A stretch of DNA of 60,053 bases from a virus (lineage: Duplodnaviria; Caudoviricetes): the IMG/VR virus record IMGVR_UViG_3300005239_000048, positions 1 through 60,053 of that record; one strand, 5' to 3'. Under the pieces are notes generated by a model. That model was not told the DNA's origin. It saw only the letters and a program-made list of their open reading frames with translations, and did not search any database. Positions 8,305 through 60,005 of the stretch are shown here, one piece after another. Numbering within the stretch: the stretch's first letter is position 1; the number at the start of each line of letters is the position of its first letter. The position numbers and the translations under genes were made by a program.

Positions 8305-8337
8305 TATTATCCGTTAGTGTTCGTATTTTGTCTGTAA
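8305..8337 (-). promoter_or_regulatory. Class I (early) promoter-like repeat, copy 1
   Basis: TTACAGACAAAATACGA-N8-GGATAATA, 14 nt upstream of ATG 8291. Confidence 0.75.
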
Positions 8338-8501: not shown

Positions 8502-8543
8502 AGTGGACGTACAAGAATCGAACTTGTGTTAACCATTACGCCC
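8501..8543 (-). ncRNA. tRNA-Ala-like minihelix (acceptor stem plus T arm only)
   Basis: GGGCGTAATGGTTAACACAAGTTCGATTCTTGTACGTCCACTA: stem GGGCGT/ACGTCC with G3-U70, T arm ACAAG-TTCGATT-CTTGT. Confidence 0.55.
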
Positions 8544-8610
8544 ATTTTAGGTGTGCTCGTATGTTTTTGGGTCGAGTTACAGCGCCACACTCGCGCCCAC
8601 ACCTATTTTT

Positions 8611-8877
8611 TTAGTCTAATAAAGTCATATATGCTGAAGCATTAGCTCTGCGGAACCAGTCTAAACCTCTGCGGTGATCTTTCATTAGCTTTTCAGATCT
8701 AAATCCAGTACGTTCAAGTACCATTGTTAAACCCATAATAAAGTCATACATACTAAGCTCATTTGCATTTAACTCTGCAGGTTCACCTGTAAATATGTTT
8801 TCTACTGTACCACCTTTTGGGTACACGTCGCCATTAAACCATTTCGGTAGTGGCTTCACTTGTGTTTTCGTGCTCAT
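8611..8877 (-). CDS. Hypothetical early protein
   Basis: ORF track; overlapping co-oriented cluster. Confidence 0.6.
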   Translation of the reverse strand: MSTKTQVKPLPKWFNGDVYPKGGTVENIFTGEPAELNANELSMYDFIMGLTMVLERTGFRSEKLMKDHRRGLDWFRRANASAYMTLLD

Positions 8878-9298
8878 ATCCTTGTTCTATTAGTTCGTTT
8901 TCTATTTCTTCTTTAATATCGTTTACCATATTTCCATAAGACTCTTCAACAGCGTCCATGAATGGGTGCCAGTCTAAGTCATCTATATACATATTGTAGC
9001 CTTCTTGTATTGCTTCTGCTATTTCATTTGATAAATCATTTTCATAGTAATGAATATCTTCACCTACACAAACACTGTCAGGATTGTTTGTAGCTATATA
9101 AACTGTATATCCATCTGCAGTTGTTTCTTCGTAGCAATAAAAATCAAAGTGTTTATTACTCCATTGGTCTGAAACCTCGCAGTCATAATGCTTTTCAAGC
9201 AAGTTCCACGCTTTAGTTTCGTCCATATCGTGGTATTCTAAGTACCCTTTAGCCTCTAATTTATCAGTTATTAGCTTATCTGTTATTATTTTTGCCAT
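8834..9298 (-). CDS. Acidic hypothetical protein
   Basis: 154-aa ORF, D/E-rich. Confidence 0.65.
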   Translation of the reverse strand: MAKIITDKLITDKLEAKGYLEYHDMDETKAWNLLEKHYDCEVSDQWSNKHFDFYCYEETTADGYTVYIATNNPDSVCVGEDIHYYENDLSNEIAEAIQEGYNMYIDDLDWHPFMDAVEESYGNMVNDIKEEIENELIEQGYEHENTSEATTEMV

Positions 9299-9633
9299 TG
9301 TTTATTGTAGTAGTTTTTAAGTATATAGTTGAATATAAAGTTTATGCGGTTATCTTCACCGTATATCATCATACGTCTTTTGTTTGTCCAAGATTTAAGT
9401 TCACCTTGTTTGTTTATGAATCTGTAAGGTACTTCGTAGGTAGGATTTATCTGATATCTTGAGTAACAATTTCTGTCAATCCTGACATAACCTGATTGAT
9501 AAGAGGCTAGTGTCACGCGCTTACCTCTCACTTTGTAAGGCAATGCAAACTCTCTAGTACCATTATTCCGCTGTTTAGGCGTCGTAATTTCCTCTACTCC
9601 CAAGTATTTCATCAGCGTAGTTGTATTTTCCAT
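9286..9633 (-). CDS. Hypothetical protein
   Basis: ORF track; overlapping cluster. Confidence 0.6.
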   Translation of the reverse strand: MENTTTLMKYLGVEEITTPKQRNNGTREFALPYKVRGKRVTLASYQSGYVRIDRNCYSRYQINPTYEVPYRFINKQGELKSWTNKRRMMIYGEDNRINFIFNYILKNYYNKQWQK

Positions 9634-9838
9634 AGTCTAATTCTATTAGTTTAAATATATAATTCCAAGTTTCTAGCTCGCGCATCGCAGCGTCAAGACA
9701 TATTTCTAGCTCGTGCATAGTTACTACACCAGTATTTTTACGCTCAATGTCGTATTTTAGTTTACTCACTCTTATCTGTAGAGCATGTATTTTAGCAAAA
9801 GCTTTGTTATGAGCTTTTTCTTTAATCATTTCCTTCAT
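9575..9838 (-). CDS. Hypothetical protein
   Basis: ORF track 9575-9859; the internal ATG (MKEMIKE) is the more likely start. Confidence 0.5.
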   Translation of the reverse strand: MKEMIKEKAHNKAFAKIHALQIRVSKLKYDIERKNTGVVTMHELEICLDAAMRELETWNYIFKLIELDYGKYNYADEILGSRGNYDA

Positions 9839-10076
9839 AGTTGTCGAATATTTCTTCACCCCAAATAAATTGTATACCAGTTTGGTCTACATAGTTAATT
9901 CCAGAAAATAAATGAATTGTTCTCATGTCATCAATAGTTAGATTGCCTACAAAGTGATTGCTTTTAAGTTTAGCTATAACAGGTCTAATGCTTGAGCTAT
10001 ATTTAGACTCGTCTTGCTTTAGTCTAGTTTTAACTTTAGGCTTTAGTTTATCGTAAAGTGTTGGTATTTTAGTCAT
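9822..10076 (-). CDS. Hypothetical protein
   Basis: ORF track; A-rich leader. Confidence 0.6.
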   Translation of the reverse strand: MTKIPTLYDKLKPKVKTRLKQDESKYSSSIRPVIAKLKSNHFVGNLTIDDMRTIHLFSGINYVDQTGIQFIWGEEIFDNYEGND

Positions 10077-10173
10077 ACATTTTATTTTAATTTAATAAAA
10101 ATTTTAACAATAAGCGATAAACAAGGTACCGCTACTATCAATCATATTTAGTTTTGATTTCATAATGTTAATT

Positions 10174-10283
10174 TAGTGGACGTGGCAGGAATCGAACCTG
10201 CGTTACTATTTAACATCTGCTTTGTACCTTTAACATTGCAATATTAGGTGCAAGTAGTTTAATAGTCTAGCCATTTCACGCCC
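10174..10283 (-). ncRNA. 110-nt tmRNA-TLD/tRNA-Ala-like RNA
   Basis: 7-bp acceptor GGGCGTG/CACGTCC with G3-U70 and A73; stemless D region AAATGGCTAG; helix ACTATT/AATAGT; T arm GCAGG-TTCGATT-CCTGC; 3' end ACTA, not ACCA. Confidence 0.65.
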
Positions 10284-10382
10284 ATAAGGCAGCAGTTACG
10301 GACTGGTAGTTAACTAGTATTGTCATTTATCCGCTCTTTCTGTTTTGGCTAATTGAGCCTAACGTGACCAGTATGCCGCCGC

Positions 10383-10571
10383 CTATTTACGCCGCCAAGA
10401 CCTGTGCACTGACGCACTTACTTCTTGACTGACGATTTGTATTGTATTACCGGTTTTATGCTCAATAATTGGTACATAACTGTACGTTTGGGTTGTTGAG
10501 CAATTAACACAGGTTTTGTAGCCCATATCTAATCGCAACCGTGGTATATTTGTTCCGCATCTACAATACAT
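10383..10571 (-). CDS. Small Zn-finger protein (DksA/TraR C4-like)
   Basis: CRCG..IP..RL......CVNC pattern. Confidence 0.6.
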   Translation of the reverse strand: MYCRCGTNIPRLRLDMGYKTCVNCSTTQTYSYVPIIEHKTGNTIQIVSQEVSASVHRSWRRK

Positions 10572-10589
10572 AATTTGTTTATTTTAATA

Positions 10590-10622
10590 TATTATCCAGC
10601 TTGGTTCGTATTTTGTTTGTAA
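10590..10622 (-). promoter_or_regulatory. Class I promoter-like repeat, copy 2
   Basis: TTACAAACAAAATACGA-N8-GGATAATA upstream of ATG 10571. Confidence 0.75.
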
Positions 10623-10786
10623 AGAAGCTCAATTGCTTTACTCATTACATAGCTATGTAGCTCATTAAACTCGTCACCATCAACAGGTTGGTCAGCGATT
10701 TGCCACTCAATACTATCGTACATTATTTCTTTAGTCATATCCGCAACACCTTGTGCTATATCGTCTATTTCTTTCATTTTACTCAT
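10592..10786 (-). CDS. Hypothetical protein
   Basis: ORF track. Confidence 0.55.
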   Translation of the reverse strand: MSKMKEIDDIAQGVADMTKEIMYDSIEWQIADQPVDGDEFNELHSYVMSKAIELLYKQNTNQAG

Positions 10787-11108
10787 TTATTTATCTTTTA
10801 TGTAAGTAAAGCTAGTTGATAGCCAAAGTTAATAGCCATTTGCATTAATAAAAAGTCGTTGCTTCCATTGTTCGCGTTGGCAAACAACTCTAACCTATCT
10901 CTGTCTCCAGGCGTCGCTACAATACCTCGATCGAGTTTATTTAGTTCGTTTTCAATATATTCTTTCATTTTATTTAAATTTAGCTGCTACAGTGTTCTCA
11001 TTTTTTAAGTATTCTTCTGTTGTTATCCATTTGCCTATATCAGACACGAATACCATTCCGTCTCTGAATATAAGTCCATTAAAGTTGCCTGGTTCTAAAA
11101 ATTCCATA

Positions 11109-11300
11109 TTAAAATTTATTTATAGTGTTATCAGAGTGAGACATCCACTCAATATTGTTTAATCTGTAGCCTTCGCTTGTGATAAACTCTTCAAAATCTT
11201 CAGTTTGCCAATGTGCAAGCGTGGTTTTATCGAAGTGGTCGGCTAAATTATACTGGTCAACCGAGCCATTTGCAAAGTCTAGTATTGTTATATAGTACAT
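11109..11300 (-). CDS. Hypothetical protein (MYYITILDF...)
   Basis: Likely internal ATG of ORF 11109-11354. Confidence 0.5.
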   Translation of the reverse strand: MYYITILDFANGSVDQYNLADHFDKTTLAHWQTEDFEEFITSEGYRLNNIEWMSHSDNTINKF

Positions 11301-11545
11301 TTCTTGATTTGTTTTAGCTGTTCGACCGAGTATTCTTTGCTTGTTTCGCGCCACATAGCGTGGTGAGTGAACTTTCTAACTTTTGGGAAGCTAGATTTCT
11401 GACTGTGTACAATACGAGTGTATTCTTTGTCAGTTAGTCCACTGCACCTGCCTTCGTGGGCGAACTTACGTCTATGCACCGCAGCTCGCTGTTTTCTCAT
11501 AAGCGTAGAGTATTCGCATAGCTCTTTCATAGTCATTACGCCCAT
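11288..11545 (-). CDS. Hypothetical basic protein
   Basis: ORF track. Confidence 0.5.
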   Translation of the reverse strand: MGVMTMKELCEYSTLMRKQRAAVHRRKFAHEGRCSGLTDKEYTRIVHSQKSSFPKVRKFTHHAMWRETSKEYSVEQLKQIKKCTI

Positions 11546-11739
11546 GGGTTATCTGATTTAGGTACGTAGGTTAAACCTTTGTAGTTAAACCACTGGTAAA
11601 TACCTTCTTGGATATCGCCATCACCTGTTAGCCTTTGTTTGAAGCCAAATGATGGAGGTAGATTACCTACATTGTAAGGCTTGTAAATTTCGCCGTTAAG
11701 CTTGATTGTCTTGTTAGACAAGAATTTAATTGATTGCAT
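11536..11739 (-). CDS. Hypothetical early protein
   Basis: Directly downstream of promoter copy 3. Confidence 0.65.
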   Translation of the reverse strand: MQSIKFLSNKTIKLNGEIYKPYNVGNLPPSFGFKQRLTGDGDIQEGIYQWFNYKGLTYVPKSDNPWA

Positions 11740-11757
11740 AGTTGTAATTGTTTATTA

Positions 11758-11788
11758 TATTATCCAGTAAGCGTCGTATTTATTGTAA
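11758..11788 (-). promoter_or_regulatory. Class I promoter-like repeat, copy 3 (2 nt shorter)
   Basis: TTACAATAAATACGA-N8-GGATAATA. Confidence 0.65.
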
Positions 11789-11898
11789 TAATTTTGTTGC
11801 CACTGTGGAATACTGAGTTATAACGCTCATACCATTCGCGCTCAATTGTTTCGATTTGCGCTCGGGTTAGTTTTAAAATGGTTTTGCCAGTTCTTTTT

Positions 11899-12096
11899 CT
11901 AGTATTCTTCATTGATTTGAGTTTTATTTATTAAGTCCACCATTAAATCTTGATGAGTTTCACCGTCTTCTAAGTCACACTCGTACTTGACAAACTCTTC
12001 TATCTTACGATAGTAGTCGTTTTCGTTTATAGCATATAGCTCTTTGAAGTACTCAATAGTGTCAGAGTTCCAATGGAAGTTAGTTTGATTTTGCAT
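11899..12096 (-). CDS. Hypothetical acidic protein
   Basis: ORF track. Confidence 0.55.
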   Translation of the reverse strand: MQNQTNFHWNSDTIEYFKELYAINENDYYRKIEEFVKYECDLEDGETHQDLMVDLINKTQINEEY

Positions 12097-12276
12097 AGTT
12101 TATTTGTTAGCGTTTATTAACAACTGTCTTTCTCGCATAGCTTTAAACGTATCACCTATCAGTTCGCAGAACTGTTCGCTTGTAAGACCAGCTATGTAGC
12201 TAGTATTGTAGCGATCGTTTGCTAATTTGTGTAAGTGGTCGTAGTAGTTAATACGTTTCATATTAGTTGTTTATTA

Positions 12277-12309
12277 TATTATCCAAAGAGTTTCGTATTT
12301 TATCTGTAA
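12277..12309 (-). promoter_or_regulatory. Class I promoter-like repeat, copy 4
   Basis: TTACAGATAAAATACGA-N8-GGATAATA upstream of ATG 12261 (MKRINYYD). Confidence 0.75.
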
Positions 12310-12726
12310 ACGAACTCCTCGTCATAGTCCGTGATAGGACCGAAGATAAACCTCAGATAATGCTAGTGAAGTCAGTGATACTACAGTTGCATAAGTGATA
12401 ACCATAATAGCTTTGTGAGTAAACTTTCTCATTTGTTTGTTGATTTATAGTAGTTAATACGTTCTAAGACTTCTTGTCTTTCTATTTTTCTTTCGAGTTG
12501 TTGTAGTATGTCGCTTGACATATCTATCTGTTTGCCATTAGGGCAAGTTAGTATATATTGCATAGTTAATTATTTTAATTTGATTTATCTTTTAACTTTT
12601 CTAGTTCAGTTATTTCATTGTACACTTCACGGTATTGAAACCACCTGTCGTTGTCTGAAGAAAATCTAGTTTGTTATACAGTTTTTGTATTTTATTAGTA
12701 ATAGTCATAATTTTAATTTTTAAGTC

Positions 12727-12804
12727 AGAAGACACTAGCGGAATCGAACCGCCTCACAAAGTAGAGCTCACATAGTCAAAATGCAGAGTGAAACCATTAT
12801 GTCT
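12727..12804 (-). ncRNA. Degenerate tRNA-like RNA (Ser-UGA-like loop, variable arm, reduced D arm)
   Basis: Acceptor AGACAT/GTGTCT; AATGG; hairpin CTCTGCAT-TTTGACT-ATGTGAG; T arm GGCGG-TTCGATT-CCGCT. Confidence 0.5.
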
Positions 12805-13167
12805 AGTTATCGCATGCTCGTATTATTTTATGTCGCTAAGGCGATAGCTCAACTACGACATTAGTTATACTGAATTTAAGCAGTTTGTTTCAAGTTATAG
12901 TACTTCAGTATTTTGAAGTGCTTTGGAATTGAAGTGGAAGAAGTATAAGAGTTATACTTTAGCCAGCAAGACAAGTGGTCAAGATTTCAGACATTAGCTC
13001 ATAAGCTTTATCGTGATTGTATTTGAAAGTTTTGCCATTTTGAATGTAACTTCAATGATAGAGTTTTGACCGATTAGAGATTTTCTGATGACAAATCTTT
13101 TTGATTGAATTGAATTTTGCATAGTGTTTATATTTAAGTATTTATATTTGTTATTTAGTATTTATAT

Positions 13168-13200
13168 TATTATCCAGTTTAGTTCGTATTTTGTTTGTAA
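13168..13200 (-). promoter_or_regulatory. Class I promoter-like repeat, copy 5
   Basis: TTACAAACAAAATACGA-N8-GGATAATA. Confidence 0.75.
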
Positions 13201-13266
13201 AGAGTGTAGTTTTATTTGTTGTTTAATTTTAGTTAGTAGTTATTACACTACACTTCTTTGTGTATA

Positions 13267-13503
13267 TTATATTATTATATAATTTAAATCTAATTCGTCA
13301 GAGTGAATTGTGTAGTTAATATTGTTAGTATTAAGTTGTTTGATTGTTTCTGGAAAACATTCAATTGTGAATTCAAATAGAATATATGTATTGTTTTTGA
13401 ATTGGTTAGAGTCTATATTGTTTTCAGAGAAGAATTCAGTTGCGTCGTCAATATAGTGTATTTCATCATTTGGAAGTATTGATTGTAGTTTAGAATAATT
13501 CAT
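13267..13503 (-). CDS. Hypothetical early protein (MNYSKLQ...)
   Basis: Internal ATG of ORF 13267-13527, downstream of promoter copy 6. Confidence 0.55.
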   Translation of the reverse strand: MNYSKLQSILPNDEIHYIDDATEFFSENNIDSNQFKNNTYILFEFTIECFPETIKQLNTNNINYTIHSDELDLNYIII

Positions 13504-13530
13504 TTGTTTTAGTATTTTTAGATTCATTAT

Positions 13531-13563
13531 TATTATCCAATGTAGTTCGTATTTTGTTTGTAA
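13531..13563 (-). promoter_or_regulatory. Class I promoter-like repeat, copy 6
   Basis: TTACAAACAAAATACGA-N8-GGATAATA. Confidence 0.75.
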
Positions 13564-13737
13564 TTATAATTTATTTATTAATTCGTCGAGCGTAATTTGC
13601 AAGCTAGTTTTAGTAACGTTACCGTTTAGATATTGGTTTAGTTCGTCGATAGTAGCTAGTATTTCGATTTTAGTATTAGAATTAATTTGCATAGTAAATT
13701 ATTTTTAGTTAGTTAGTAGCTTAATTGCTTACGTATA

Positions 13738-13770
13738 TATTATCCAAACGTACTCGTATTTTGTCTGTAA
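13738..13770 (-). promoter_or_regulatory. Class I promoter-like repeat, copy 7
   Basis: TTACAGACAAAATACGA-N8-GGATAATA; first element of the leftward arm. Confidence 0.75.
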
Positions 13771-18252: not shown

Positions 18253-20908
18253 ATGCCAATTAAATTTCTTAATGATGTCGCTGTAGACACTAGTGTCTTA
18301 TATGTAGATACAACAAACGATAGAGTTGGTATCGGAACGGCTAGTCCAAGTGAAAAACTTCATGTTGTTGGCTCAGCTCTTATTGAGGGCTCAAGTATCG
18401 AATTAAAAGTAAAAGGAAGCGGGAGCTACGACACAGCTAATATTACTATGGGTAACGCGGCTAAGGCTGATAGTTTTTCAATAGATACTCGAAACGATCC
18501 AGGCGATAATAAAACAACTCTCAGTTTTGATTCTTATCAGACAACGGGTACATCGACAATAACGCTTGGCGATAATTATGTAAATTTAGGTACAGCCAGC
18601 TCAACCCGGTTGGTGATCAATTCTTCGGGCAACGTCGGGATTGGGACGACTAATCCTAGTCAAAAACTTCACGTATCAGGTAATGCAAGAGTCACAGGAG
18701 CATACTACGATTCAAATAATTCCCCAGGCACATCAAACCAAGTATTAGTATCTACAGTTACAGGCACTGATTGGATTGACGGTTCGGCTATACCAGGTGT
18801 TCCAGATGGATCAGGCACCGCTGGTAAAATAGTTATGTGGCAAGACTCTGATACACTTACAGATTCTAAAATCACACAAACAGCAGGCAGTGAAACAAAC
18901 TATGTAGACGTTGATTTTGCAAATGTAGAAGATTTAACAATAACAGGGGATAGTAGCTTTAGTACTTTTACTGTTAATGCTTTTGATGAAGTTAATTTTT
19001 CAAATATTGAAAATAATTTTAGTGTTGGAAGCGGTGACTTGAGCATAGCTACTGGTGATTCTAGTATGAGTCTTGGTACGACTACAGCTGATAGTGACAC
19101 GCTAACAGTTGGATATACAACTACTAGATTTATAGGCACAGGAAACTTCGGGATTGGTACGACTAACCCTGGCGAAAAGCTTACATTGCAAACTCAAGCA
19201 ACTGGCTTAGGGAGTGAAGGTGTTTTTATAAAAAACCCTTTCGCGGGTAGCACGCCTATTGTAAACTCTAAAAGTCCTTTTTTATCATTAGCAACTTCCA
19301 ATAGTTCTGGGTATACCTCTACAATTTATATGGGTAGAAACGGAACAGCCACAGGTCAAGAAAGTAAAATAGAGTGGAGTAATTCTAATAATGGTTTAAG
19401 CATTTATGTAGCAGGGCAAGGCAGCTACCGGGAGCATGTTCGTTTTGGAAATCTTTCTTCAAGTGTCGCAAGAACGTATTTTAATGGCACCGTCGGTATC
19501 GGAACGACTAGTCCTGCATATTTACTTGATGTAAACGAAGATGATAACGTATTGGCGTTTCGTGTTACAGGCGGAGGTGGCGGTGCGCCAATGGCTAGTT
19601 TTGTAAGAGACGTGGGGGCAACTGGCTCTCAGGTAAATATAAATGCTCAGAGTAATTTTCCTCAAATACAGTTTACTAATACAAGTAATACTTTTTCAAT
19701 AGGCGGAGATACTTCTGGTAATTTTAAAATATCAGATAATACGGCTATTGGAACAAATGATAGGATTACAATAGACAATACTGGCAACGTAGGGATTGGG
19801 ACTACTAGTCCAGCAGCTCAGCTTGAGGTTGAAGGTGGTGACCATTTATTACAATTAAGCTCGCTTTCCGCTACCGGTAATCCATACGTATCATTCAACC
19901 AAGCCGGCGCTAGGAGATCTTTTATACAACACGCTGATAACGGCGATTTCCTTAAATTAGCTAGTGAGTATGGCGGTATTAGTTTCTTCACAGGAACAGG
20001 AGGTACTGAAACTCAAAAAATGACAATACTGTCTGGCGGCAATGTCGGGGTTGGTGACACAAGCGCCAGACGCTAAATTAACAGTGTTTAGAACTGATAG
20101 TACATACGCTATAAACCTTAGCAATACAGAAGCTAGAGCAGGTTTATCCGTAAAATCTTCAAGCACTTTTGATAGCAAATTAACAATAAGCTCTGGAGCA
20201 AGCTCTAGGCAGTATATACAAGCTGTTAATAACGCCGCAACAACAGGAAGAGATATTGTTTTAAATCCTTACGGCGGCAACGTTGGGATCGGGACTACTA
20301 GTCCTGGAGCTAAGCTGGATGTTAGTGGTAGTTTTAAGTTAAGTGATTTTACTTCAAATTCAGTTGCAACAACGGGTAGTTTATCACCTAATCAAAACTA
20401 TCAAGCGTCAACACAAGATACTTTAGCTGATTTAACTGTTGATCCAAGTGGTAATGTAGTAAGAGGCATGCAAGAAGGCACGTGGACTTTTACAAAAGCA
20501 CAACTTGATGGGACTTTGGGAATGACGTTAATATCAGCGCCAGGTGTAAATAAAGCTGTTATAGTTTATGAATCATCTTGGATGATAAAGTATAATGCTA
20601 CTGGGGCTATAAGCGCAAACCAAAGATACGAAATACGCCAGGCTAGTAACGTAGGCGTAGGAGTCGTAACTATATTACCTGGAGCAAAAATTAATGAAAT
20701 ACTTTCTAATGGCCAGACTATGCCGGGAGGTGGTGCTTCTGCTTATGGATTTTATTCAAGAGACGTACCTGCGGACGTGGGTGGTAGAACTTTTAAAACA
20801 AACACAGCTACTACGCTGCATAAAAACGTTTCAAATCAATTACCAACAGGTGTTGAAACTGTTTCAATAAAATTAAAATATAGAATATACGATGCAACAA
20901 CTTTTTAA
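18253..20908 (+). CDS. Tail fibre with GNVGIGTTSP repeats (apparent +1 indel near 20061)
   Basis: Seven repeats across ORFs 18253-20076 and 20042-20908; the junction falls inside one repeat. Confidence 0.75.
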
Positions 20909-21674: not shown

Positions 21675-23231
21675 ATGACTGACAAAATTGTCAAAAATCT
21701 TAACTTTGGTCAAGAGGCTAAAGATAAGGTGTTTAAAGGTATAGATAAATTAACAAAGGCTGTTAGCTCCACACTTGGGGCTAGCGGCCAATGTGTAATA
21801 CTAGAAGATGATCAGGGTAAACCTGTCATTACAAAAGATGGTGTAACTGTAGCAAATGCTATAACACTATTAGACCCAGTAGAAAATATGGGTGCTACGC
21901 TTCTAAAGGAAGCTGCTAGAAAAACTGTTCAAGAAGCTGGCGATGGAACAACAACGGCTACAGTACTAGCGCACTCAATTTTAACTGAAGCGTATAAAAA
22001 TATCGACAAAGATAATATACGTAATATTAAAAACGGTATAACAAACGCCGTTGATAAAGTTGTTAAATACCTAGAAGCAAAAGCTATTGAAGTAAAAGGT
22101 AGCATGCTTGATGATGTAGCAACAATTAGTTGTAACAATGATTTAGAACTAGGTAAAATAATCGGTGATGCTTTTAAAGCAGCTGGTGAAAACGGTGTTG
22201 TTATAATGGAGCCAACAACAGAGGACAAAACAGAGTTTGAACTTGTTGACGGTGTACAATACGAAAAGGGTTTAACCAACTCTCACTTTGTTACAAGTAA
22301 AGAAAAACGTGTAGCAGAACTTGACAACCCACTTGTATTACTAATCGAGTCACCTATAGAATCTGTACGCAAGATTCAGTCAGTCCTTGAGTATGTAATT
22401 AAAAATAAAAAGCCATTGCTTATTATAGGTGATTTAGAAACAGAAGTGTTATCAACACTAGCGATGAACAAGGCTAAAGGTAATATAAAAGTAAATGTAG
22501 TAAACGCGCCTACGTACGGTATAAACAAGAAAGATACAATGTCTGACTTAGCTATACTTACCGGTGCTACTGTTATCAACGAAGATCTTGGTGATGACTT
22601 AGATGTTATAAACCCAGACTTTCTAGGATCGTGTTTTAAGAGCACAACTAGTGATACAGATACAATACTTCAAGTAGATACTTCTACTGACGAGATAAAG
22701 CATTTAATTGATTCAGTTAAAAAATTGATATCTAAAGCTAAAGCTCCTGGTGAAGTTATAAGACTTGAAAAAAGATTAGCTAGACTATCAGCAAAAGTTG
22801 CAGTTGTAAAAATAGGGGCTAACTCAGAGATAGAGTTAAAAGAAAAATCAGATAGAGTCGAAGATGCTATCTGTGCTACTAAAGCCGCGATAAAAGAAGG
22901 TATAGTATCTGGAGGTGGCATAGCTCTTCGCGATGCATCTAATAAAACCAAAAGTAAAAACATTGGTGAAAAGATATTGCTAGAAGCTATTAAAGCTCCA
23001 TTTAAAACTATACTAAATAACGCTGGACTAGAAGAGGTTGGTACGCCCGAAGAAGGTATGGGTGTTAATGTAGTTACAGGTGAAACTGTTCATATGGTTG
23101 ATACAGGTATTATTGATCCATTGCTTGTAACTAAAAGCGCACTCAAACACGCGGCTTCAGTGGCTACCACTATACTTTCTACAGATTGTGTAATCAATAA
23201 TTTAAGAGTTGGAGATGATAGCAGTAGGTAG
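21675..23231 (+). CDS. groEL: Chaperonin GroEL
   Basis: ITKDGVTVA, AGDGTTTATVLA, RVEDA..ATKAA..EGIV.GGG, GIIDP motifs. Confidence 0.96.
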   Translation: MTDKIVKNLNFGQEAKDKVFKGIDKLTKAVSSTLGASGQCVILEDDQGKPVITKDGVTVANAITLLDPVENMGATLLKEAARKTVQEAGDGTTTATVLAHSILTEAYKNIDKDNIRNIKNGITNAVDKVVKYLEAKAIEVKGSMLDDVATISCNNDLELGKIIGDAFKAAGENGVVIMEPTTEDKTEFELVDGVQYEKGLTNSHFVTSKEKRVAELDNPLVLLIESPIESVRKIQSVLEYVIKNKKPLLIIGDLETEVLSTLAMNKAKGNIKVNVVNAPTYGINKKDTMSDLAILTGATVINEDLGDDLDVINPDFLGSCFKSTTSDTDTILQVDTSTDEIKHLIDSVKKLISKAKAPGEVIRLEKRLARLSAKVAVVKIGANSEIELKEKSDRVEDAICATKAAIKEGIVSGGGIALRDASNKTKSKNIGEKILLEAIKAPFKTILNNAGLEEVGTPEEGMGVNVVTGETVHMVDTGIIDPLLVTKSALKHAASVATTILSTDCVINNLRVGDDSSR

Positions 23232-33786: not shown

Positions 33787-34971
33787 ATGTCAGAAGAAAT
33801 AAAACAAGAGGGAGAGTTTAAAATAAAAACTCCTACTAAACCTAAAAACTTAGGTAAATCAAACGAAGTAACTAAAATTGAAATACCCAAAGAAGGTATT
33901 GAATCTCAAGGAGAAGTAATTCCTGAGGTTACTAAAGTAGAAATAAAAAACGAAGATGCCGTTCAAACACAAGAGACAGATGATAGCAATGTTATTATCG
34001 AAGAGTCCCCAAACAGTAGCCACAGCGAAGAAGTGGTTGAAGAAATACGGACCGCCGACGAAGGAGTAGAATCTCCTTTAACTGTAGTTGAAGACACTGA
34101 AGAAGAAGTTGTTGAGGAACAACCACAACAAACAATTGTAGAGCAAAAACAATTACCAGAAAATATTGATAAGCTAGTTACTTTTATGGAAGAAACTGGT
34201 GGAACTGTGCAAGACTATGTTAGGCTTAACGCAGATTATACCAATGTTGATAATAAAACTTTAATTAGTGAATATTATAAACAAACTAAACCACACTTAG
34301 ATTCTGAAGATGTAAGTCTTTTATTAGAAGACTTTGATTATGATGAAGATATAGATGAACCAAAAGACATACGCAAAAAGAAAATTGCGTTCAAAGAGGA
34401 GGCTGCGAAAGCTAAAGACTTTCTTGAAGGCTTAAAAGGTAAATACTACGACGAGATCAAGTTGAGACCCGGCGTAACCCAAGAGCAACAAAAAGCATTA
34501 GACTTTTTCAACCGATACAATGAAGAGCAACAAACAGTAGAACAAAACAAACAGGCTTTTGTTAACCAAACTTCTAGTCTTTTTTCTAATGATTTCAAAG
34601 GTTTTGATTTCAACGTAGGAGAGAAAAAATTTAGATACGGTGTTAAAAATCCTGAAAGTGTAGCTGAAGCACAAAAAGATATAGCTAATTTTGTCAAGAC
34701 GTTCTTGAATGATAAAGGCCAAGTCGTTAAAGTTAAAGACTACCACAAAGCTTTGTATGCTGCTAGAAACGCTGACACCATTGCCCAACACTTTTATGAA
34801 CAAGGAAAAGCTGACGCTGTTAAAGATGTCATGGCTAAATCGAAAAATATTTCGACTGAGCCTCGTCAAACAGCTGCTGGTGAAGTATTTGTTAATGGAA
34901 TTAAAGTAAAAGCAATGAGCGGAGTTGATTCTTCAAAATTGAAAATCAAAAAAGTAACAATAAAAAACTAA
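33787..34971 (+). CDS. Capsid scaffolding protein
   Basis: Highly acidic N-terminus; lies between portal and MCP. Confidence 0.7.
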   Translation: MSEEIKQEGEFKIKTPTKPKNLGKSNEVTKIEIPKEGIESQGEVIPEVTKVEIKNEDAVQTQETDDSNVIIEESPNSSHSEEVVEEIRTADEGVESPLTVVEDTEEEVVEEQPQQTIVEQKQLPENIDKLVTFMEETGGTVQDYVRLNADYTNVDNKTLISEYYKQTKPHLDSEDVSLLLEDFDYDEDIDEPKDIRKKKIAFKEEAAKAKDFLEGLKGKYYDEIKLRPGVTQEQQKALDFFNRYNEEQQTVEQNKQAFVNQTSSLFSNDFKGFDFNVGEKKFRYGVKNPESVAEAQKDIANFVKTFLNDKGQVVKVKDYHKALYAARNADTIAQHFYEQGKADAVKDVMAKSKNISTEPRQTAAGEVFVNGIKVKAMSGVDSSKLKIKKVTIKN

Positions 34972-48870: not shown

Positions 48871-51800
48871 ATGAACGAAGATCAGATAAATGAATTAAAG
48901 TCTTTGGTTGATGAGTTAACAACTCAAGGTTTATCTACAGAGCAAATACAAGCTAGTGTTGATCAACGTAAAGCTGAGTTTGCTAATGCTGTAGAAGTTA
49001 CAGACGAAACACAAACAACTCTAACTGAGGGAAAGACAAACGGTGCTGTGGCAAAGGGTGCAACTGCAACACTGACAACCGGGCCAGCACCCGAGAGTTC
49101 GGAATTAAGCTTGGGAGATACTTTTTTGGAATTACAAGAAGAGGTTGATTCATATGAGCCTATAGATAATTCTGAAAAAGCTATAAAAGCTAGAAGAAAA
49201 CTAGCTAAATTTAATAAAGCTTTTGAAATTAAACTTGATCCAGTTGTAGTTACAGGTGTTGATATTAAAAAGAAAAAGTCTAATGACATATTAAATAATA
49301 TTGGTCTTGATATATATTCTAATAGACAAGATAAAATAGCTCAAACAATAGCTAAAGCTAAAGGAAAAGAAAATCCAGATTTTGAAGAAATAAACACTGT
49401 AAAAGATTATACTAGTTTTTTAACAGGTGCTTTTAATTATGAAGATTTGATTGATGATGTAAAGATAGATGAATTTTCAATAAGAGACTTACAAGCTACA
49501 CAACAACAAAATGCTTTTAATCAAACGTATACAGACTTAAGTAATCAATACGGTGAAAATTTAAACAATCAAGTTTTAGAATTTGGCGCTAACGTATTGC
49601 AAGGTGATGATAAAAAACTATACGATCTTCAGCAAAGATTAAAATCTGCACCAGATGGTTTAGTTCGTCAAGGCATACAAGCACAGATAAAAACTATGCT
49701 TGATGACGCCGATAGCAAAAGTCTTTACGATTACAACACTGGTAATGTTTATACCTATAGAAAAAATAAAATTGAAAAAAAGAATTTAAACACAGGTAAA
49801 GTTACTCAAGTAAAAGACAATGACGTTCCTGATTTTTTAAAAGAGCAAGAAGAAAAAGCAAAAGACAAAGCTAAAACTACAGAGGTTTCTATGCTTGAAG
49901 ATGAGTTAGCTAAGTCTTATGCTGGGTTAGTATCTATATCTAAAACTATAAGTCAATTTGAAAACCAAAACCAAGGCGAGGTTGCTAGATCTCAAAACGC
50001 GCCTGGATCTTTTGTTGGTGATATAAAAAATTTATTTGGTTCAGAAGAAACAGTTTATGGTGATTTAAATAGAGTAAATGAGATAGCTCAAACAGGCGTT
50101 ATACCACAACAAATAAGTGAAATACCAGGTAATCATCCGCTAGCAAAAGCTTTTAATAGAAACTTACAAGAGTATATTATTCTTAATAAGGCTATACAAA
50201 CAAACGTAAATCCTTTAAGTAAACCTCAAGAAGGTTTTAGTATTGTACTTGATAAACTTAAAGATAAGTTTTATGATTTTAGCGCAACAAGACAAGAGCC
50301 AAAACTTCAATTTGAAGTTAACCAAGTGTTTAATAATGCGGCGCAACAAGCAGGTCTTACATATATAAATACAGACGATTTATCAGAAAAACTCGAGCAA
50401 GAGACTAAGTCTGTTGTTCTTGGTGGCACTATGGATTTATCTTTTTTCATGGGTGAATTAGCAGCAACTAGAGGAGCTACTGGTAATGTTATAAGAAAAG
50501 GATCTAAAGCAGTTGAAGGTTTATTTTTAGCCTCTAATCTAGCTAAAAAAAGTAAGATAGTAAGAACAGCAGGTAAAGCGTTTATTGGAGGTGTTGATGA
50601 GGTAGCTACATTTGCTTTACTAGATGAAAGTAAAGAAGCTTTAGGTCTTACAGCTCCGTTAACAAGAGAAGAAACTACCGCTAGAAATCAATTTGCTTTT
50701 GGCCTTGGTTCTGGAGGTTCTTTAGCCCAAGGTTTACTAAGAGCTCTTCCAGCTAAAACATATCTTACGCCTGTGTTAGCTCAGATGAATAAATCTAAAA
50801 TAGTAAACAAAATAGGAAACAACGTTGCTGGCGGTGGTGTTGGTGCTTTTTCTTTTGAGTTTGCTAGAGCTTTAGAAGCTGTGACTAATAAAGATAAAGA
50901 ATATTTCCAAAGAAGTCCAGAAGAGTTTGTAAAAGAATATCTTATTGAAGTTGCTAAAATGTCTGTGCTCGGTAGAGGTTCTATATTTGGCAAAAACAGT
51001 ATGCTAAGAGCTGCGCAAAACGATTTAAGATTAATAGGTTTAAATCCTTCTTATGTTAATGCAGCTGCTAAGCGAACTGGTTTTTCTTCTAAAGAAGTTA
51101 AAGATCCAACCGAAAACACGGTTGATGATATTAACATGTCTAGGTCAGAGCAAATGCAAGCTATCGATGCTAAGCTAAAGACGGGCCAGATAACAGAAGA
51201 GCAAGCTAAAAAAGAGTCTGATAAAGCTAATAAAGATTATAATATATTAGAAGCTGAAGCTGAATATAACATAGCAGTGGAAGCTGTTAAAGCTGAAAAA
51301 GAAAGTGGTTTACAACCGTCTGATACTGCCGTACGTGTAGCTACTAATAAAATAAAAAGAGGCGAAACTTTAAATGCTGAAGACAATAACGCTATAGTAA
51401 ATACACCCACGCCTATACTTGCTAATAGATTAAATATAGAGTCAAACTCTAAAAGTGTACAATCTATATGGAACAGAGAATATATTATAAATGATATTTT
51501 AAATAATGACTCTAGTTTTAAAGCGCCATATGGAAGTTCGCAAAGAGAAGCTTCTTATAAATTTTTAAATGAATCTTTTAATATTGGAGCACCGCTTGAA
51601 AGTTTAAGGAAAAGAAAAAACAATCTAAACGAAGACCAATTAAAAGAGTTAGAAATATTAGAAAAAGATTATCAGCCTTATACCAAAGATGGTTACAAAT
51701 ATAAAAAGCTTCAAGATGAATTAAATAAATTTTATTTAGAACAACGTATAAAAAATAAAAAACAAGCAGAAGAAGTTTTAGGCGCTACAAAAGAAGGTGA

Positions 51801-54800
51801 GTCTGTTCCTATAAAATCTGTAGAAGAACTACAAAGAATATACGATGAAGCTTTTCCAAACGAACCTAAAGACGTTAGTAGTCTTGATGGCTTTTATGAT
51901 CCTAATAAAAAAGTGTTTTATACAAACGAAACACAGCTTAAAAACATTAGAAATTTTACTACCGACAAACATGAAACTGGTCATTTTGTTTTAAGAGATT
52001 CATTAAAAAACAAAGCTGGTGAAGTAACTGAAGAAGGTATTAGAATTATAGACGAAGTAATGTCTGAGCTTACTCCTAAACAAAGAGAGGTAGTTCAAAA
52101 TAGAATAGATGATTTTTATAGATTTGATTCTAAAGGAAACGAAAGAGCTAAAAAAGATTATTACGAAGAGTATCTAATGGTGTTATCTGATGCTATAGCT
52201 AATAATCAAATAGTATTTAAAGAAAATGTTGGTAATGCTTTTGAAAAGTTTGTTCCTTTTCTACGTAAAAATGGTGTGGAAAACCTAGAGTTAAACGCTG
52301 AGACTGGTAAGAACTTATTTGAGCTTATTAAAAGTTATTCTAAAGGTGAGCTGCGTGGTATTGAAGCTGCTAAAAAAATGTCAATAGCTGCTGAGAAAGC
52401 TAGTGTTGAAACTGAAAGTGTTGAAGTGGTAGATAAACCCGCTCAATTTTCTTCAACTACAGCTCAAGATTTAGCTGTAAAATTTAAATCACCAGAAGGT
52501 TTATCTCGTAAAGTTGACCCAAAAACGGGCTTATCTGAGGAAGCTAATTTTAATCAACAAATAGAGTTGATAGCTTTAGAAGCTTTAGGTTATAAGAAAG
52601 GGAAAGGAACTATAAGTAGAGACGAAGCTGTTAGTTTTGTAAATCAATATATACCTGGTATACTTAGAAGATTTGATCCTAGCAAAAGACAAATATCTAC
52701 ATTTATAACAAGTAACATAAGACCAAAGCAACAAAAATTTTACGAGCAAGAGATTGGTACTAAACCTTTAGAAACTAGAATATCTGATGAACGCGCACGT
52801 GAAATAGCAGATACACAAGCTGAGCCTTTAGAAACTAAAACAGAAGCAACTACTGATTTTAAACTAGTAGATGCTATTAAAATAAACAAAGAACCTATAA
52901 GTCCTGATACAAAAGCTGAAATAAGAAAGCTTGTAACTAAAGAAACTGAAGGTATAGATCCTAACAGTGATACGTTTAGGAAAAAAGCTTTAAAACCTGG
53001 TAGTGATCTTATTAATTTTATTAAGCAAGAATTATTAGGTGGAACCGCTATGCAGGATTATAGAAACTTTATAAGAGAAAATCCTAATTTTATAAAAGGA
53101 TTAAATATTGCTCAGCTTATAAGGTTTGATACGGGTTTATTAAAACAAGGTAAACCTAGGCTTTTTACTGAGTTAAATAGAAAACTTACTAAGCAGAAAG
53201 AAATAGAAAAATTTATGATGCAAGGTAGAGTTCCATATAAAACTATAAAACAAATAAAAGCTGGCGCTAATTTATACAATAGATTAAAACCTACAGAAAC
53301 TCAGCTCGTAAACTTTCTAACCAACGAGATTCCTTCAACTGTAAGTAATAGAAAAACAGCTATAGCAAGTGCAATAGCAACAAAGTTTATTGCAGAGGCT
53401 ACTCCTAGCACAGAGGCTTTTAAATCAAAACCAAAAGCTGAGCAAGCTAAGATAGCTGAAAAACTACAAGTATCACCTGCCGCTAAGTTTAGTGAGACAA
53501 AAAAAGAAGTAACTCCCGAGTCTATAGAAGAGAATGCAGAGATTACCATAGGTAAAGACAGGGAAGGTAAAAAAGTTTTTAGGCCTAGTAACATAAAAAT
53601 AACAAGAGACACAAAACTTAATCAATTCGGTGTTGGGGTTGTTAACCCAAAAGAAACGGGTAAAACGTATACTACAAGAGACTTGACTCAAAAGCTACCT
53701 AATGATATAGCTAGTTTTGAAGGTGAGACAGTTTTAGAAGGTGGCAAAAGAGTTTTAGAAGAATTTTTAACTGACAACCCTGAGTTGTATCAATCAACCA
53801 TGTCTTCAGTTACAGCTGGAACTGAAAGAGGTTTTATGTCTACTAAAGAAGTTTTTAAAAAAATTATACCACAGGCAGATTCAAAAGTAGAACAAGTTGG
53901 TAAAAGATTTCCGTATCTTAAAAAATTTGGATTTGCTATTCCAAAATTTATAGAATCTACTAAACAAAAAGATTTTGTAAAAACACAGGAACAACAAGTT
54001 GATAATCTTGTTGATTATTTTGTAGCGTGGGAATCTCATTTAGCAAAAAATCCAAAAGACGCTTGGGTACTTGATGCGATAGTTAAAGACGCTCAAGACA
54101 ATCAAAACTCTATACTTAGATTCGGTGCTGCAAACTTATTTATGAACGTTAATAAAAAAGGTAAGATACCTTTAGATGTTCAAATGGCGGAAGAACATTC
54201 TACACCGCAAAATAATATTAGCACTATATTAGAGCAAGCGGCTATAAATGGCAATGTTGAAAATGCAAGGTCGCTTATAAAAGCTATATATATGCAAGGT
54301 GGTTTAACTAGAACTGATGATGGTTTAGTTAATATATTGTTTAAATCTACAATGCCAGATTTTTTCTACAAAGAAATAGTACCGGCTATATTAAGTGGTA
54401 AGGTTAAATTAGATTCCGGTGTTGGCGCTGTTATTAGAATGACAGAGTCAGGTGTCAATATGGATAACTACAAGTATTTTCCAGCAAATAAAACTTTTAG
54501 CGAATATTTATTTGGATCAAATGGTTTGCCTTTAAAAGAGCAAGCTAGATTAACTAGAGATTATTTAAGTGGTAAAATTACATTAGCAGAATCTAGAAAA
54601 GAAGGGGCTGGACTAGCTGAAAATTATATAAAGTTAGAACCAGGTAAAGCAAAAGCTGAAACTAAAAACAACGGTGAGCTACCACCATCATTATCTTTTA
54701 CTGAAAAACAAAGTAATGAAAAAGTATTAGAAGAATTAGGCACGCTAGACAAGGCTTTAAAAGTAGCTAGAGATCCTAAAGCACCAATTAAAAAATACGT

Positions 54801-57326
54801 GTATTTGATTTTGACGATACATTAGCTAGATCTAATAGTAAGGTTATATATGAAATGCCTGATGGTAAGACTGGTAAACTAAATGCTACGCAGTTTGCTG
54901 AAAGAGCTGGTGAGCTAGAAGCTCAAGGAGCAACATTTGATTTTGCAGAGTTTAGCAAGGTGGTTGACGGTAAAAAAGGTCCTGTGTTTAAAGCTATAGA
55001 AAACATTGTAGCTAAACGTGGTGCTGAAGATGTATTTATACTTACAGCTCGACCTGCTGATGCTGCTGGTCCTATAAAAGAATTTATGGATGCGCTTGGT
55101 GTTAAAATACCTATTGAAAACATTGTAGGTTTAGGTGACGGTAAAGCACAAGCTAAAGCACGTTGGGTAACTGGTAAAGCTGCAGAAGGTTATAATGACT
55201 TTTTCTTTGTAGATGACGCTTATAAAAACGTTAAAGCTGTACGCAATGCGTTGGAAGTGTTTGATGTTAAATCTAAAACACAGCAAGCTAAAGTTATGTT
55301 TAGTGAAACTGTAGATCTTAATAAAGATTTTAACGATATTATAGAGAACAAAACTGGTATTGGTGCTGATAAAGTATACAGCAGAGCTAAAGCTCAAGTT
55401 GTAGGTGCTAGCAAAGGTAGTATATTTAAAGGTATACCTTACTCAGCTCAAGACTTTACAGGTTTGCTTTATGAAACGTTAGGTAAAGGAAAACTAGGTG
55501 ATCAACAAATGGCATGGTATAAGTATAATCTTCTTGATCCGTTTGCTAGAGGTGTAAACGATATATCAAGAGACAGAATTGCTATGTTTAATGACTACAA
55601 AGTTTTAAAGAAAGAACTTGGAGTTATACCTAAAGACTTACGTAAAAAATTACCAGGCGAACCTTACACTAAAGAACAAGCGGTTCGGGTGTATACCTGG
55701 AATCAATTACAAGGTATGGAAGTACCAGGCGTTAGTAAAGCAGATTTAAAAACATTAAATGAGTTTGTCAATAACAATCCTGAATTAAAAGTATTTGCAG
55801 AACAATTAGTTGCTATAAACAAAGGCGACGGATATGCTAAACCAAATGAGACTTGGCTTACTGGTAGTATTACAACTGACTTGCTTGATGGTGTTAACAC
55901 TACTAAACGTGCTAAGTATTTAGAGCAGTGGCAAACAAATGTAGATGAAATATTTAGCGAAGCAAACTTAAACAAACTTGAAGCCGCATACGGTAAAAAG
56001 TATCGTAAAGCTTTAGAAAATAGTTTACAACGTATGAAAAGTGGTCGTAACAGATCTTTTTCAGATGATAGCTTAACAGGTAGATTTACTGATTGGCTTA
56101 ACGGTAGTATTGGTGTAACAATGTTTTTTAACACGAGATCATCTTTGCTACAAACGTTATCATCAGTTAACTTTGTTAACTTCTCAGATAACAATCCGCT
56201 TAAAGCAGCTAAGGCTTTTGCGAATCAGAAACAATACTGGAAAGACTTTAAGTACTTAATGAACTCTGACTTCTTAAAAGAACGTCGTGGCGGACTGCGT
56301 ATGAATGTTAACGAAGCTGATATAGCAGAGGCTGCTAATAAAAACGGCCCAAGAGGTGTTGTTAATAGATTATTACAATTTGGTTTTACACCTACACAAA
56401 TAGCAGATAGTTTTGCTATTGCATCTGGTGGTTCTACATTTTACCGAAACAGAATTAAGACATACGAAAAGCAAGGATTAAGCACAGCTGAAGCAGAAGC
56501 TAAAGCATTTGAAGATTTTAGAGAGACAGCAGAAGAATCTCAGCAGTCGTCAAGACCTGATAGAATATCTATGCAGCAAGCAGGACCGCTAGGCCGTCCT
56601 ATACTTGCATACGGTAACACTCCTGCACAGTATGTAAGGTTAACAGATAAGGCTATTAAAGATTTAAAAGCCGGTAGAGGAGACGCTAAAACAAACATTA
56701 GTAAAATTATATATTACACCACTGTACAGAATTTAATATTCAACTCGCTTCAACAAGGTTTGTTTGCTATAGCTTTTGGAGAAGCAGATGCTGATGATGA
56801 GAAGTACGAGAAAAAATATGTTAACGTGGCTAACGGTATGGCTGATTCTATATTACGTGGAACAGGTGTTGGTGGTGCCGCGATATCTGTAGGTAAAAAT
56901 GCTATTATACGTATCATGCGTGAGCAAGAAAAGAAAATGCCTAAACTTGAAAAGGTAGGATATGAACTTACTAAAATATCTCCACCTGTTTCTTCTAAGC
57001 TTTCTAAAATAAATCAAGCCGCTAGATCTTATCAATGGGATAAAGACGAAATGATGAGTAAAGGTTTTAGCTTTGACAATCCAGCGTATTTAGCAGGTGC
57101 AAGTGTAATATCGGCAACCACAAATGTACCATTAGATGAAGCTATAAAAAAAGTTGAAAACGTCATAGCAGCTACAGAAGCTGATAAAGAGCTTTGGGAA
57201 CGTTTAGCTTTATTTGGTGGTTGGTCTGAGTGGGAGATAGAAGAACCTGAAGATGAGAAAAAGAAAAAACCTCAATCTAGAAAAGTTAAAAAGAAAAAGA
57301 TTAAAAAGAAAAAAATTAAAAAATAA
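48871..57326 (+). CDS. Giant (~2,800 aa) polyvalent virion/ejection protein; one A apparently missing at ~54795
   Basis: ORFs 48871-54825 and 54855-57326 join via IKK|IRVFDFDDTLA; contains HETGH, a sigma-like segment and HAD motifs. Confidence 0.7.
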
Positions 57327-58240: not shown

Positions 58241-60005
58241 TTATCCGTCACAAGCAGCGCAGTCAGGATCCATAGCTTGCTTAGCAATGTCACCACGTAG
58301 TACTGATTCAGTACGCATATAATACAAGGTTTTGATACCTTTTTTCCAAGCATCCATATGTACTTGGTTGATCCACTTAGGTGTAGCCTCGGAAGGAAAC
58401 GCTAGGTTTAAACTAACTGATTGATCTATATACTGTTGGCGTATACCAGCTTGATTAACAAGCTCTAGTTGATTAATCTCTTTGAAAGTTTTAAACACGT
58501 TTTTAACTTTGTCAAAGCCTGTAGTTTCTAAATCATCTTGCTCAGATAATACCACTAGCTTTTTATTAACATAACCGTAGTCGTCAAGCGGTAGATCTTG
58601 TATGCTACCACCGTCAGCCATTATCTTATCCCAAGTTTCTTTACTATTTAACCCAGCTTTTCTTAAGACTTTTTCGAGCTCTTTGTTCTTCCTAATGAAC
58701 GTACCCTTCGCACTTTGTTCAGTGAAAACATTAGCGGCCCAAGGCTCAATACCAGGACTAACATTACCGGCAAGCTTACTATTAGACACAGTAGGAGCAA
58801 TAGCCCTAAGATGAGTGTTACGAAACCCAGTACCAACGCACCAAAGAGGTTCACCATAAAGTTCAGCGAGATCTCTACTCGCTCGTTCAGATTCGATTTT
58901 AATCTGGCTAAATATTCTTCTAGTTTCATATTGTGCTGTTAATCCCTCGAAGGGTATTCCGTTTTTTTGTAGGTAGGTGTGCCAGCCAAGTACGCCAAGG
59001 CCGAGCGCTCTGCCTTTTTCCGCAGATCTAACTGAGTTTGCAAAGCCAACTTTTCCTTTCGACTTTCTGTATAAACTCTTCCAGTACTCCGTCCAAAAAC
59101 CAAGTAGCATCGTATATAAGGTTTGTATTTTTCCACTCTTCATATCTTGATAAATTTAAACTTGATAAGCAACAAACAAAGCTATGACTTTCATCTGTGT
59201 GTAATGTAATCTCACTGCAGATATTTGTCATGTGTACTTTTAAAGCGTTGTCTTTGTATGCTTTTGGATTTGCTTTGTTAGTATTTCCTTTAAACATAAC
59301 GTACGGTTCTCCAGTTGCTTTTCGCTTTCTAATAAGTTTACTCCATCTAGCTCTAGCATCCGCATCTCCTTGTTCAAGACGTCGCATAAACTTATCACCA
59401 ACAACTGCGCACTGATGTAGGTTAAGCGACTGTCTGTTAACATCTCCTTTAGGTTCTCTGATCTCAAGCCACTCTTCAAAATCATCGTGCTCAATATTAA
59501 TGTTAACACTGGCAGCTCCTCTTCTAACAGATCCTTGATTAGTTGCAAGTATTGTTGAGTCGTATATTTTGCAGAAAGGTACGACTCCGTCTGATGTTCC
59601 ATTGCCTGTAATTTTAGCGCCGGCGGGTCTGATTTGATTTATACCAATGCCAACTCCACCGCCGTGCTTAGCGAGTAGCATCATCTCTAAGTTTTTTTGT
59701 CCAATATCCTGAATCGAATCGGCTACATCGATACCAAAACAAGATATAGGTAAGCCACGGTCAGTGCCGGTATTACTAAGTACCGGGCTAGCAAGGCAAA
59801 GCCAACCATTCCAAATATAATTAAAGAAAGTTTCTGCCATTTCCGGTTTATATAATCTGCGAGCAACCGTTTTACTGACGCGCATGTATGCTTCTTTAGG
59901 CGACTCTCCTGCGAGTAAATATCCCCCGGATATAGTCTTCTTGTATACGTCGTTATTACCCCACGTAGGGTAATCTTCACCTTTTTTCCAGTTTTCATTC
60001 CACAT
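58241..60005 (-). CDS. nrdA: Ribonucleotide reductase class I alpha subunit (apparent +1 indel near 59063)
   Basis: ASPVLSN, ISCF, GGGVG, QGSVRRGA, TNICSEI, CCLSSLN, AIAPT, IDQSVS.N, GIKTLYY, C-terminal CAAC. Confidence 0.92.

Follow-up and report, generated by a model that had tools for sequence, protein, structure and literature searches.

The window analysed here is the whole IMG/VR virus record IMGVR_UViG_3300005239_000048 (60,053 bp, classed as linear and rated 93% complete by CheckV). A giant gene on its plus strand encodes a mosaic protein of the cargo or polyvalent type, and within this protein lies a block of 351 residues (52441-53493, +) that is the subject of this report. The first ~105 residues of the block are very probably a divergent homologue of sigma-70 region 2 (sigma2; regions 1.2-2.4). 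Overall, the sequence-based evidence points to a real sigma2-like cargo module whose function is unproven. The first-pass annotation of the window had proposed a sigma factor embedded in a giant ejection protein. A sigma-70 region-2-like helical domain is indeed found at the place it pointed to and is backed by a structure model, a fold search, family profiles and a language model.

The block corresponds to residues 1191-1541 of the open reading frame (ORF) 48871-54825. As annotated previously, its stop-free translation opens with AQFS (52441-52452, +) and closes with AKFS (53482-53493, +). The peptide DEAVSFVNQYIPGILRRFDPSKRQISTFITSNIRPK, on which the sigma proposal was built, is present as block residues 61-96, i.e. 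at 52621-52728 and not 52621-52730 as given earlier. An AlphaFold2 model of the block, based on an alignment of 55 rows, reaches a mean predicted local distance difference test score (pLDDT) of 86.1 and divides the block into three parts. The N-terminal helical, sigma2-like domain (block residues 5-106; 52453-52758, +) contains the peptide and consists of helices at residues 8-16, 33-49, 60-68, 71-77 and 85-105. It is followed by an acidic, disordered linker of low confidence (residues 107-137; 52759-52851, +; pLDDT <50) and by a C-terminal alpha/beta domain (residues 138-347; 52852-53481, +), a separable module that is confidently modelled and has no clear neighbour in the PDB. Both borders of the block fall on module borders of the giant protein, the AQFS border coinciding with a boundary of its mosaic exchange. 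At the block end, the pattern xxF[S/A] is found in 40 of 59 aligned rows, 16 of which read AKFS. In a phmmer search of 1.84 billion representatives, the block has 92 relatives at E<=0.001; each is a giant protein or a fragment of one.

The resemblance of the N-terminal domain to sigma region 2 exceeds chance. The family profiles A2 and A4 each have a single significant match among 177,635 PDB sequences, namely Staphylococcus aureus SigB (E 8.8e-4 and 7.9e-4, respectively). The alignment spans SigB residues 5-87, keeps the register of regions 1.2-2.3 and takes in the RFD and FS[T] positions. A helical sigma2 fold comprising regions 1.2-2.4 is predicted, the point on which the first-pass annotation had made its proposal depend, and a fold search lists sigma factors in its first 19 rows. 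In the language-model Atlas, Sigma70_r2 (PF04542) is assigned to 21 of 30 named neighbours, and another seven bear the name sigma-70 region 2. Scores reach 0.94 at low shared-feature counts (113-124 of 256), which is what a distant relative would be expected to show. Among 127 distinct family sequences, the best-kept positions are P80, S86, T87, an aromatic residue at 88, K/R96 and Y101; S86 is kept in a fraction of 0.87 and T87 in 0.89 of the sequences, and F, Y or W are the most frequent residues at position 88. The most conserved motif, [F/L/I]-S-T-aromatic (52693-52704, +), lies inside the sigma2-like domain; it is a region 2.3-type F-S-T-aromatic motif that aligns in register with SigB, and the best-kept stretch as a whole aligns with sigma region 2.3-2.4.

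Fold searches and hidden Markov models detect neither sigma3 nor sigma4 in the block (absence from the fold list does not exclude a family), and the domain is therefore regarded as a sigma2-only unit. With PF04545, a search of all six frames of the record recovers a free-standing sigma factor encoded elsewhere and nothing else. A partial PF08281 match upstream of the block (52042-52095; 18 residues, 12.2 bits) was considered as a region 4 and judged to be at chance level. The distribution of the module was followed in 80 related IMG/VR loci, 73 of which include enough upstream sequence to be judged. An iterated profile detects the sigma2-like domain in 27 of these 73. The C-terminal domain of the block is found in 12 of the 80 loci. 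The two domains occur together in five loci, the N-terminal domain alone in 22 and the C-terminal domain alone in seven.

Binding to RNA polymerase (RNAP) was addressed by complex prediction. The sigma2-like domain, supplied with its alignment, was combined with residues 190-380 of the beta' subunit of Flavobacterium johnsoniae (RPOC_FLAJ1), and the predicted complex lends weak support to an interaction. Its median score is 0.34 (runs of 0.41, 0.34 and 0.32) compared with 0.00 in all three controls; the pLDDT of the partner is at least 77, and at least 66% of the contacts agree between runs. During calibration, 58 of 80 solved complexes and 2 of 110 mismatched pairs attained the mark; at scores of 0.60 or below, just 7 of the 80 solved complexes did so, along with both mismatches. 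The pass makes binding slightly more probable and does not amount to proof. Overall, it is nearly an even matter, tipping slightly to the negative, whether the sigma2-like domain would bind host RNAP. That it would also act in initiation is possible and on the whole improbable.

Several results weigh against the reading of the domain as a working sigma2 unit. Pfam Sigma70_r2 (PF04542) has no match to the block at E<=1 for the protein or E<=10 in six-frame translation, and the same holds for the NCBIfam sigma models at E<=1. A broader profile restricted to the domain (A5, 20 rows) finds no sigma factor in the PDB at E<=10, and hhalign of A4 with the phage's own sigma factor yields a probability of 0.14%. 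Foldseek searches of the PDB and BFVD return no hit at E<=0.001, the sigma rows being weak ones; the top row in BFVD (E 3.2e-3) comes from an uncultured virus and is an uncharacterised protein that is probably related. The SigB alignments show the loss of two elements of the sigma-70 consensus, the QEGxxGL-type core-binding signature in region 2.2 and the pair of tryptophans in region 2.3. The weak pass of the complex prediction may reflect likeness to solved sigma-RNAP complexes. The 1984-aa part of the giant protein that holds the block has no cultured-phage homologue (tblastn and megablast against 50,697 phage records, from which records close to the window may be missing). Finally, the module is absent from 46 of the 73 judgeable relatives and therefore not essential to the early programme of the group. 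As far as this distribution tells, the sigma2-like module is an accessory cassette and not the early-transcription device of the group.

The context of the domain is a giant gene at 48871-57326 (+), which forms one ORF of ~2,808 aa if the A-run at 54790-54795 has seven A. As read in the window, this run has six A, and an apparent frameshift splits the gene into ORF 48871-54825 (1984 aa) and ORF 54855-57326 (823 aa), the latter continuing the giant ORF in the -1 frame from the run; a seventh A would keep the frame. In relatives, the junction APVKKIRVFDFDDT is read straight through, both parts are fused in a single protein of about 2,700-3,100 aa in 61 of 68 homologues, and the bridging contig contains one A more in four out of four public sequencing runs. 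For these reasons the gene is treated as a single ORF of ~2,808 aa. The stop at 54825 is not real for the population and reflects either faulty assembly or a rare variant. Programmed frameshifting was set aside as the preferred reading, the in-frame A7 being present in all four runs, although contigs could miss a minority A6 form.

Most of the giant protein belongs to no known family. The 1984-aa and 823-aa proteins have no match among PDB sequences at E<=10 (phmmer), and neither the giant ORF nor the block matches a PHROGs family. Its likely role is suggested by position. The plus-strand arm of the record codes for a terminase, a portal, a virion structural protein and two muzzle-related proteins (phrog_14478; Pfam PF25729 'Crassvirus muzzle protein C-terminal domain', E 1.6e-11); the muzzle-like genes are followed by three smaller ORFs and then by the giant gene. 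In crAss001, the genes after the muzzle encode two cargo proteins (gp45 and gp46) and three giant proteins associated with RNAP (gp47, gp49 and gp50), all five of which were found in virions by mass spectrometry (PMC10172136). The giant gene, located downstream of the muzzle-like genes as in crAss001, thus sits at the crassvirus cargo position, and by this analogy its product most likely travels in the virion as cargo. Delivery of the sigma2-like domain in the virion, as suggested by gene order and the kind of protein, is rather likely. The C-terminal part also has a weak tblastn match to Gundel1_74, a 2482-aa phage 'structural protein'. No basis for that label turned up in the main text of PMC8776804, in which 'proteome' and 'mass spectrometry' each occur zero times; the supplements may hold one.

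BLAST maps of 68 homologues show that the modules of the giant protein are exchanged independently of each other. The modules comprise residues 1-1175 (with a conserved HExxH), the block (1190-1545), residues 1545-1975 and the last ~820 residues, which are almost universal. The giant protein joins unrelated modules, with mosaic exchange between relatives, as is characteristic of polyvalent proteins. The HExxH motif (HETGH, 51970-51984, +) lies 157 aa upstream of the block and marks a putative zincin-like metallopeptidase region. Three family alignments retain the motif in their consensus, and the region has no match in Pfam, NCBIfam or PDB sequences. Together with the conserved xxF[S/A] borders, it would allow a release of the block by proteolysis, as far as sequence motifs can indicate. 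Further upstream, the N-terminal module contains glycine-rich hydrophobic stretches (50600-50900, +), e.g. GGGVGAFSF at 50830-50856, which would suit a membrane-active role in ejection.

Downstream of the block, the module preceding the conserved C-terminal part contains a conserved EH..P...N..Y-type motif (54190-54207, +) that by eye resembles the signature of His-Me finger (HNH-like) nucleases; this module has no family match. The C-terminal part itself (54792-57326, +) is common to nearly all relatives and consists of haloacid dehalogenase (HAD)-type phosphatase motifs followed by ~600 aa. These motifs are FDFDDT and, in the family consensus, LTARP and FADD. The part has a weak match to a polynucleotide kinase family (phrog_415) and none in Pfam. 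FDFDDT, located at the frameshift, was also considered as an RNAP metal motif. This candidate was rejected, as DxDxT with LTARP and FADD downstream is the HAD pattern. In one relative (P0032), a P-loop kinase cassette (AAA_33/Zeta-toxin-type, residues 2108-2257) directly precedes the HAD-like part, an order that resembles polynucleotide kinase/phosphatase. The profile that includes the C-terminal modules (A3) retrieves coiled-coil noise and nothing else from the PDB.

No RNAP was found in the record at its 93% completeness. According to bioRxiv 10.1101/2020.03.07.982082, a DFDxD motif marks the virion RNAP of all crAss-like phages. A six-frame scan of the record for D[FYWLIVM]DxD yields four matches, none of them within the giant ORF (48871-57326). 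The earlier statement that no RNAP motif is visible therefore holds for the giant ORF. The sole exact DFDxD in the record is DFDYD at ~34330, in an acidic stretch of a 394-aa ORF (33787-34971, +) between the portal and capsid genes. This ORF probably codes for a scaffold-like protein and not for a polymerase.

A separate part of the earlier proposal concerned seven class I promoter-like sites, TTACAnACAAAATACGAnc-N8-GGATAATA, which lie at 8305-13745 (-) and form repeat family D1. The element GGATAATA occurs in nine copies compared with 2.44 expected, and seven of the nine are located on the minus strand within 8305-13745. The sites cluster in a region of small genes and share the upstream sequence TTACAnACAAAATACGA. 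This upstream box lies ~9 nt from the GATAAT-like element, so that the two do not form a standard -35/-10 pair. The exact pattern AAATACG-N8-13-GGATAAT was searched in 29 related records. With a fixed spacing, as AAATACG-N9-GGATAAT, it occurs in 5-7 clustered copies on a single strand in eight of them (G002, G005, G007, G013, G015, G017, G018 and G019).

The co-variation of domain and motif across phages, which had been suggested as a check, was examined as co-occurrence in the 20 of these 29 records that were also searched genome-wide with the domain profile, and the outcome is negative. The module is present in three of the eight records with at least five motif copies (G002, G018 and G019) and in four of the twelve with fewer, these four having 0-2 copies. 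The remaining five motif-rich records (G005, G007, G013, G015 and G017), four of which have a completeness rating of 99-100%, carry 6-7 copies and yield no genome-wide match to the module at E<=1. An iterated profile applied to the giant gene is likewise negative in four of the five, the locus of G007 (L028) being cut upstream and not judgeable. A very divergent analogue may occupy the same slot in relatives without the module. Since five relatives carry 6-7 copies without the module, the class I motif is independent of it, and the proposal that the domain steers the host enzyme to these seven sites is not borne out. This negative result matters in its own right: the conserved early promoter motif of the group does not depend on the sigma2-like module.

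The second sigma factor postulated in the first-pass annotation does exist. It is a free-standing sigma-70-family factor of 251 aa (4774-5529, -) that matches TIGR02937 (E 2.5e-11; 43.5 bits, cut-off 42.9) and, weakly, Sigma70_r2 and r4. With representatives in 16 of the 20 related records, it is, judged by gene content, a core gene of the group; the class I motif does not strictly co-occur with it. The factor is very abundant in marine metagenomes, where at least 8,000 candidates passed and the best 120 among the matches listed are 84-95% identical.

As a tentative overall explanation, to which clearly less than even confidence is attached, the block would be a two-domain cassette in virion cargo with a sigma2-only unit that acts on host RNAP. 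The giant protein would enter the cell together with the DNA, and its HExxH peptidase region may free the cassette at the conserved xxF[S/A] borders. The sigma2-like domain would then dock on the beta' clamp helices of the host core RNAP and, ahead of all phage gene expression, help to open -10-like DNA on the entering genome. Its part would be that of an accessory booster of the takeover and not of a dedicated reader of class I promoters. The broader proposition that some marine Flavobacteriia phages deliver a sigma2-only initiation factor in the virion, as a cleavable cassette that reprograms host core RNAP prior to expression, is a doubtful one. The same evidence of fold and docking would also suit a sigma decoy, i.e. 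a delivered domain that fills the beta' clamp helices, blocks the host sigma factor and shuts off host transcription without reading promoters. No sigma4 or other recognised DNA-reading domain is seen, and takeover effectors typically show such an accessory, cassette-like distribution. For pure competition, however, the core-binding region 2.2 would suffice, whereas the best-kept stretch aligns with the DNA-melting region 2.3-2.4, and binding to core RNAP is itself unproven. A decoy is thus considered unlikely. Because the best-kept residues align with the DNA-melting and not the core-binding region, minimal initiation in the manner of T4 gp55 would be favoured over it.

Similarly unlikely is a helical module without a role at RNAP, whose sigma2-like topology stems from a captured sigma factor or from convergence and which serves packing, folding, ejection or the binding of another ligand. 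Fold, profile and language model converge on one family, the region 2.3-like motif is strongly conserved, and the docking pass stands above three controls at 0.00, all of which speak against this reading. The model of the first-pass annotation, in which the injected domain guides core RNAP to the class I promoters (seven sites, TTACAnACAAAATACGA-N-GGATAATA) and class II promoters are then read by the free sigma factor, draws on a motif that is real and clustered in the small-gene region. With the upstream box only ~9 nt away from the GATAAT-like element, the arrangement would suit a sigma2-only reader, and no RNAP is seen in the record. The five related records with 6-7 motif copies and no module, together with the four that have the module and 0-2 copies, nevertheless render this model improbable. 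The domain could, finally, be the specificity subunit of an unrecognised phage RNAP hidden in the giant protein or elsewhere in the genome. Crassviruses have giant RNAP-associated cargo proteins at this gene position, and most of the giant protein is without a known family. Yet the giant ORF lacks the DFDxD-type motif that bioRxiv 10.1101/2020.03.07.982082 states to be present in all crAss-like phages, and the free sigma factor is kept as a core gene, which implies that the phage uses host RNAP. A hidden polymerase is the least probable of these explanations. The accessory sigma2-only unit acting on host RNAP is retained as the best, if tentative, account.

The phage itself probably has a crassvirus-like tail. 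The nearest cultured relatives of its terminase are podophages of Flavobacterium, Cellulophaga and Tenacibaculum (identity <=46%), which makes a marine member of the Flavobacteriia the probable host. The stretch of the giant gene is present in sequencing runs from 14 studies, and the phage group is common in marine metagenomes. Among the other genes of the record, a GroEL-type chaperonin is encoded at 21675-23231 (+; Cpn60_TCP1, E 1.7e-55). A direct repeat of 57 nt occurs four times at 18628-20332 (+), within the tail-fibre ORF 18253-20076 and just after it. Two overlapping ORFs at 58241-59143 (-) and 59028-60005 (-) encode the large subunit of ribonucleotide reductase in two pieces, with an N-terminal part covering profile positions 2-128 and a C-terminal part covering 376-523. 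This split may be due to another frameshift or to an insertion.

Phages are known to start transcription either with the host holoenzyme or with an injected polymerase of their own, as in N4-like, crAss-like and phiKZ-like phages. Both free-standing phage sigma factors and injected polymerases are well known. A sigma-like domain borne by the particle would, if true, be a third and cheaper route by which the host enzyme is captured at time zero. No description of a virion-delivered sigma factor, or of a sigma-like domain within a cargo protein of the virion, was found in the literature, including PMC5512222 and PMC7824862, with subscription journals mostly outside the coverage. The word 'sigma' is absent from the main text of PMC5512222, the paper on polyvalent proteins (Iyer et al. 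2017).

The sigma2-like domain shares the fold of regions 1.2-2.4 with the bacterial sigma-70 family, such as SigB and the extracytoplasmic function (ECF) sigma factors. Unlike these, it is not a separate gene, and it is found without sigma3 or sigma4, a match to curated models, the region 2.2 signature and the tryptophan pair. Its closest working analogue would be gp55 of phage T4, a late sigma factor that is likewise sigma2-only. T4 gp55 is free-standing, is made during infection and works together with gp33 and the sliding clamp. The domain described here, in contrast, is embedded in a probable virion cargo protein of ~2,808 aa and has no known partner. With the virion RNAPs of N4-like and crAss-like phages it would share the logic of transcription machinery that is delivered along with the DNA in giant proteins encoded after the tail genes; it differs in lacking a polymerase motif, and a sigma-like piece would need the host enzyme. 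Compared with polyvalent proteins, no LPD Pfam domain is matched here, LPD39 being a weak lead from the Atlas (score 0.83, 28% of members). Otherwise the giant protein resembles them, as described in PMC5512222, in its giant mosaic architecture, its HExxH region, its variable cassettes such as the kinase of P0032, and its context of phage structural genes. The jump-starting of transcription is a published theme of polyvalent proteins (PMC5512222). The sigma2-like domain, if it acts as proposed, would add a transcription-initiation module to the domains known in polyvalent cargo proteins.

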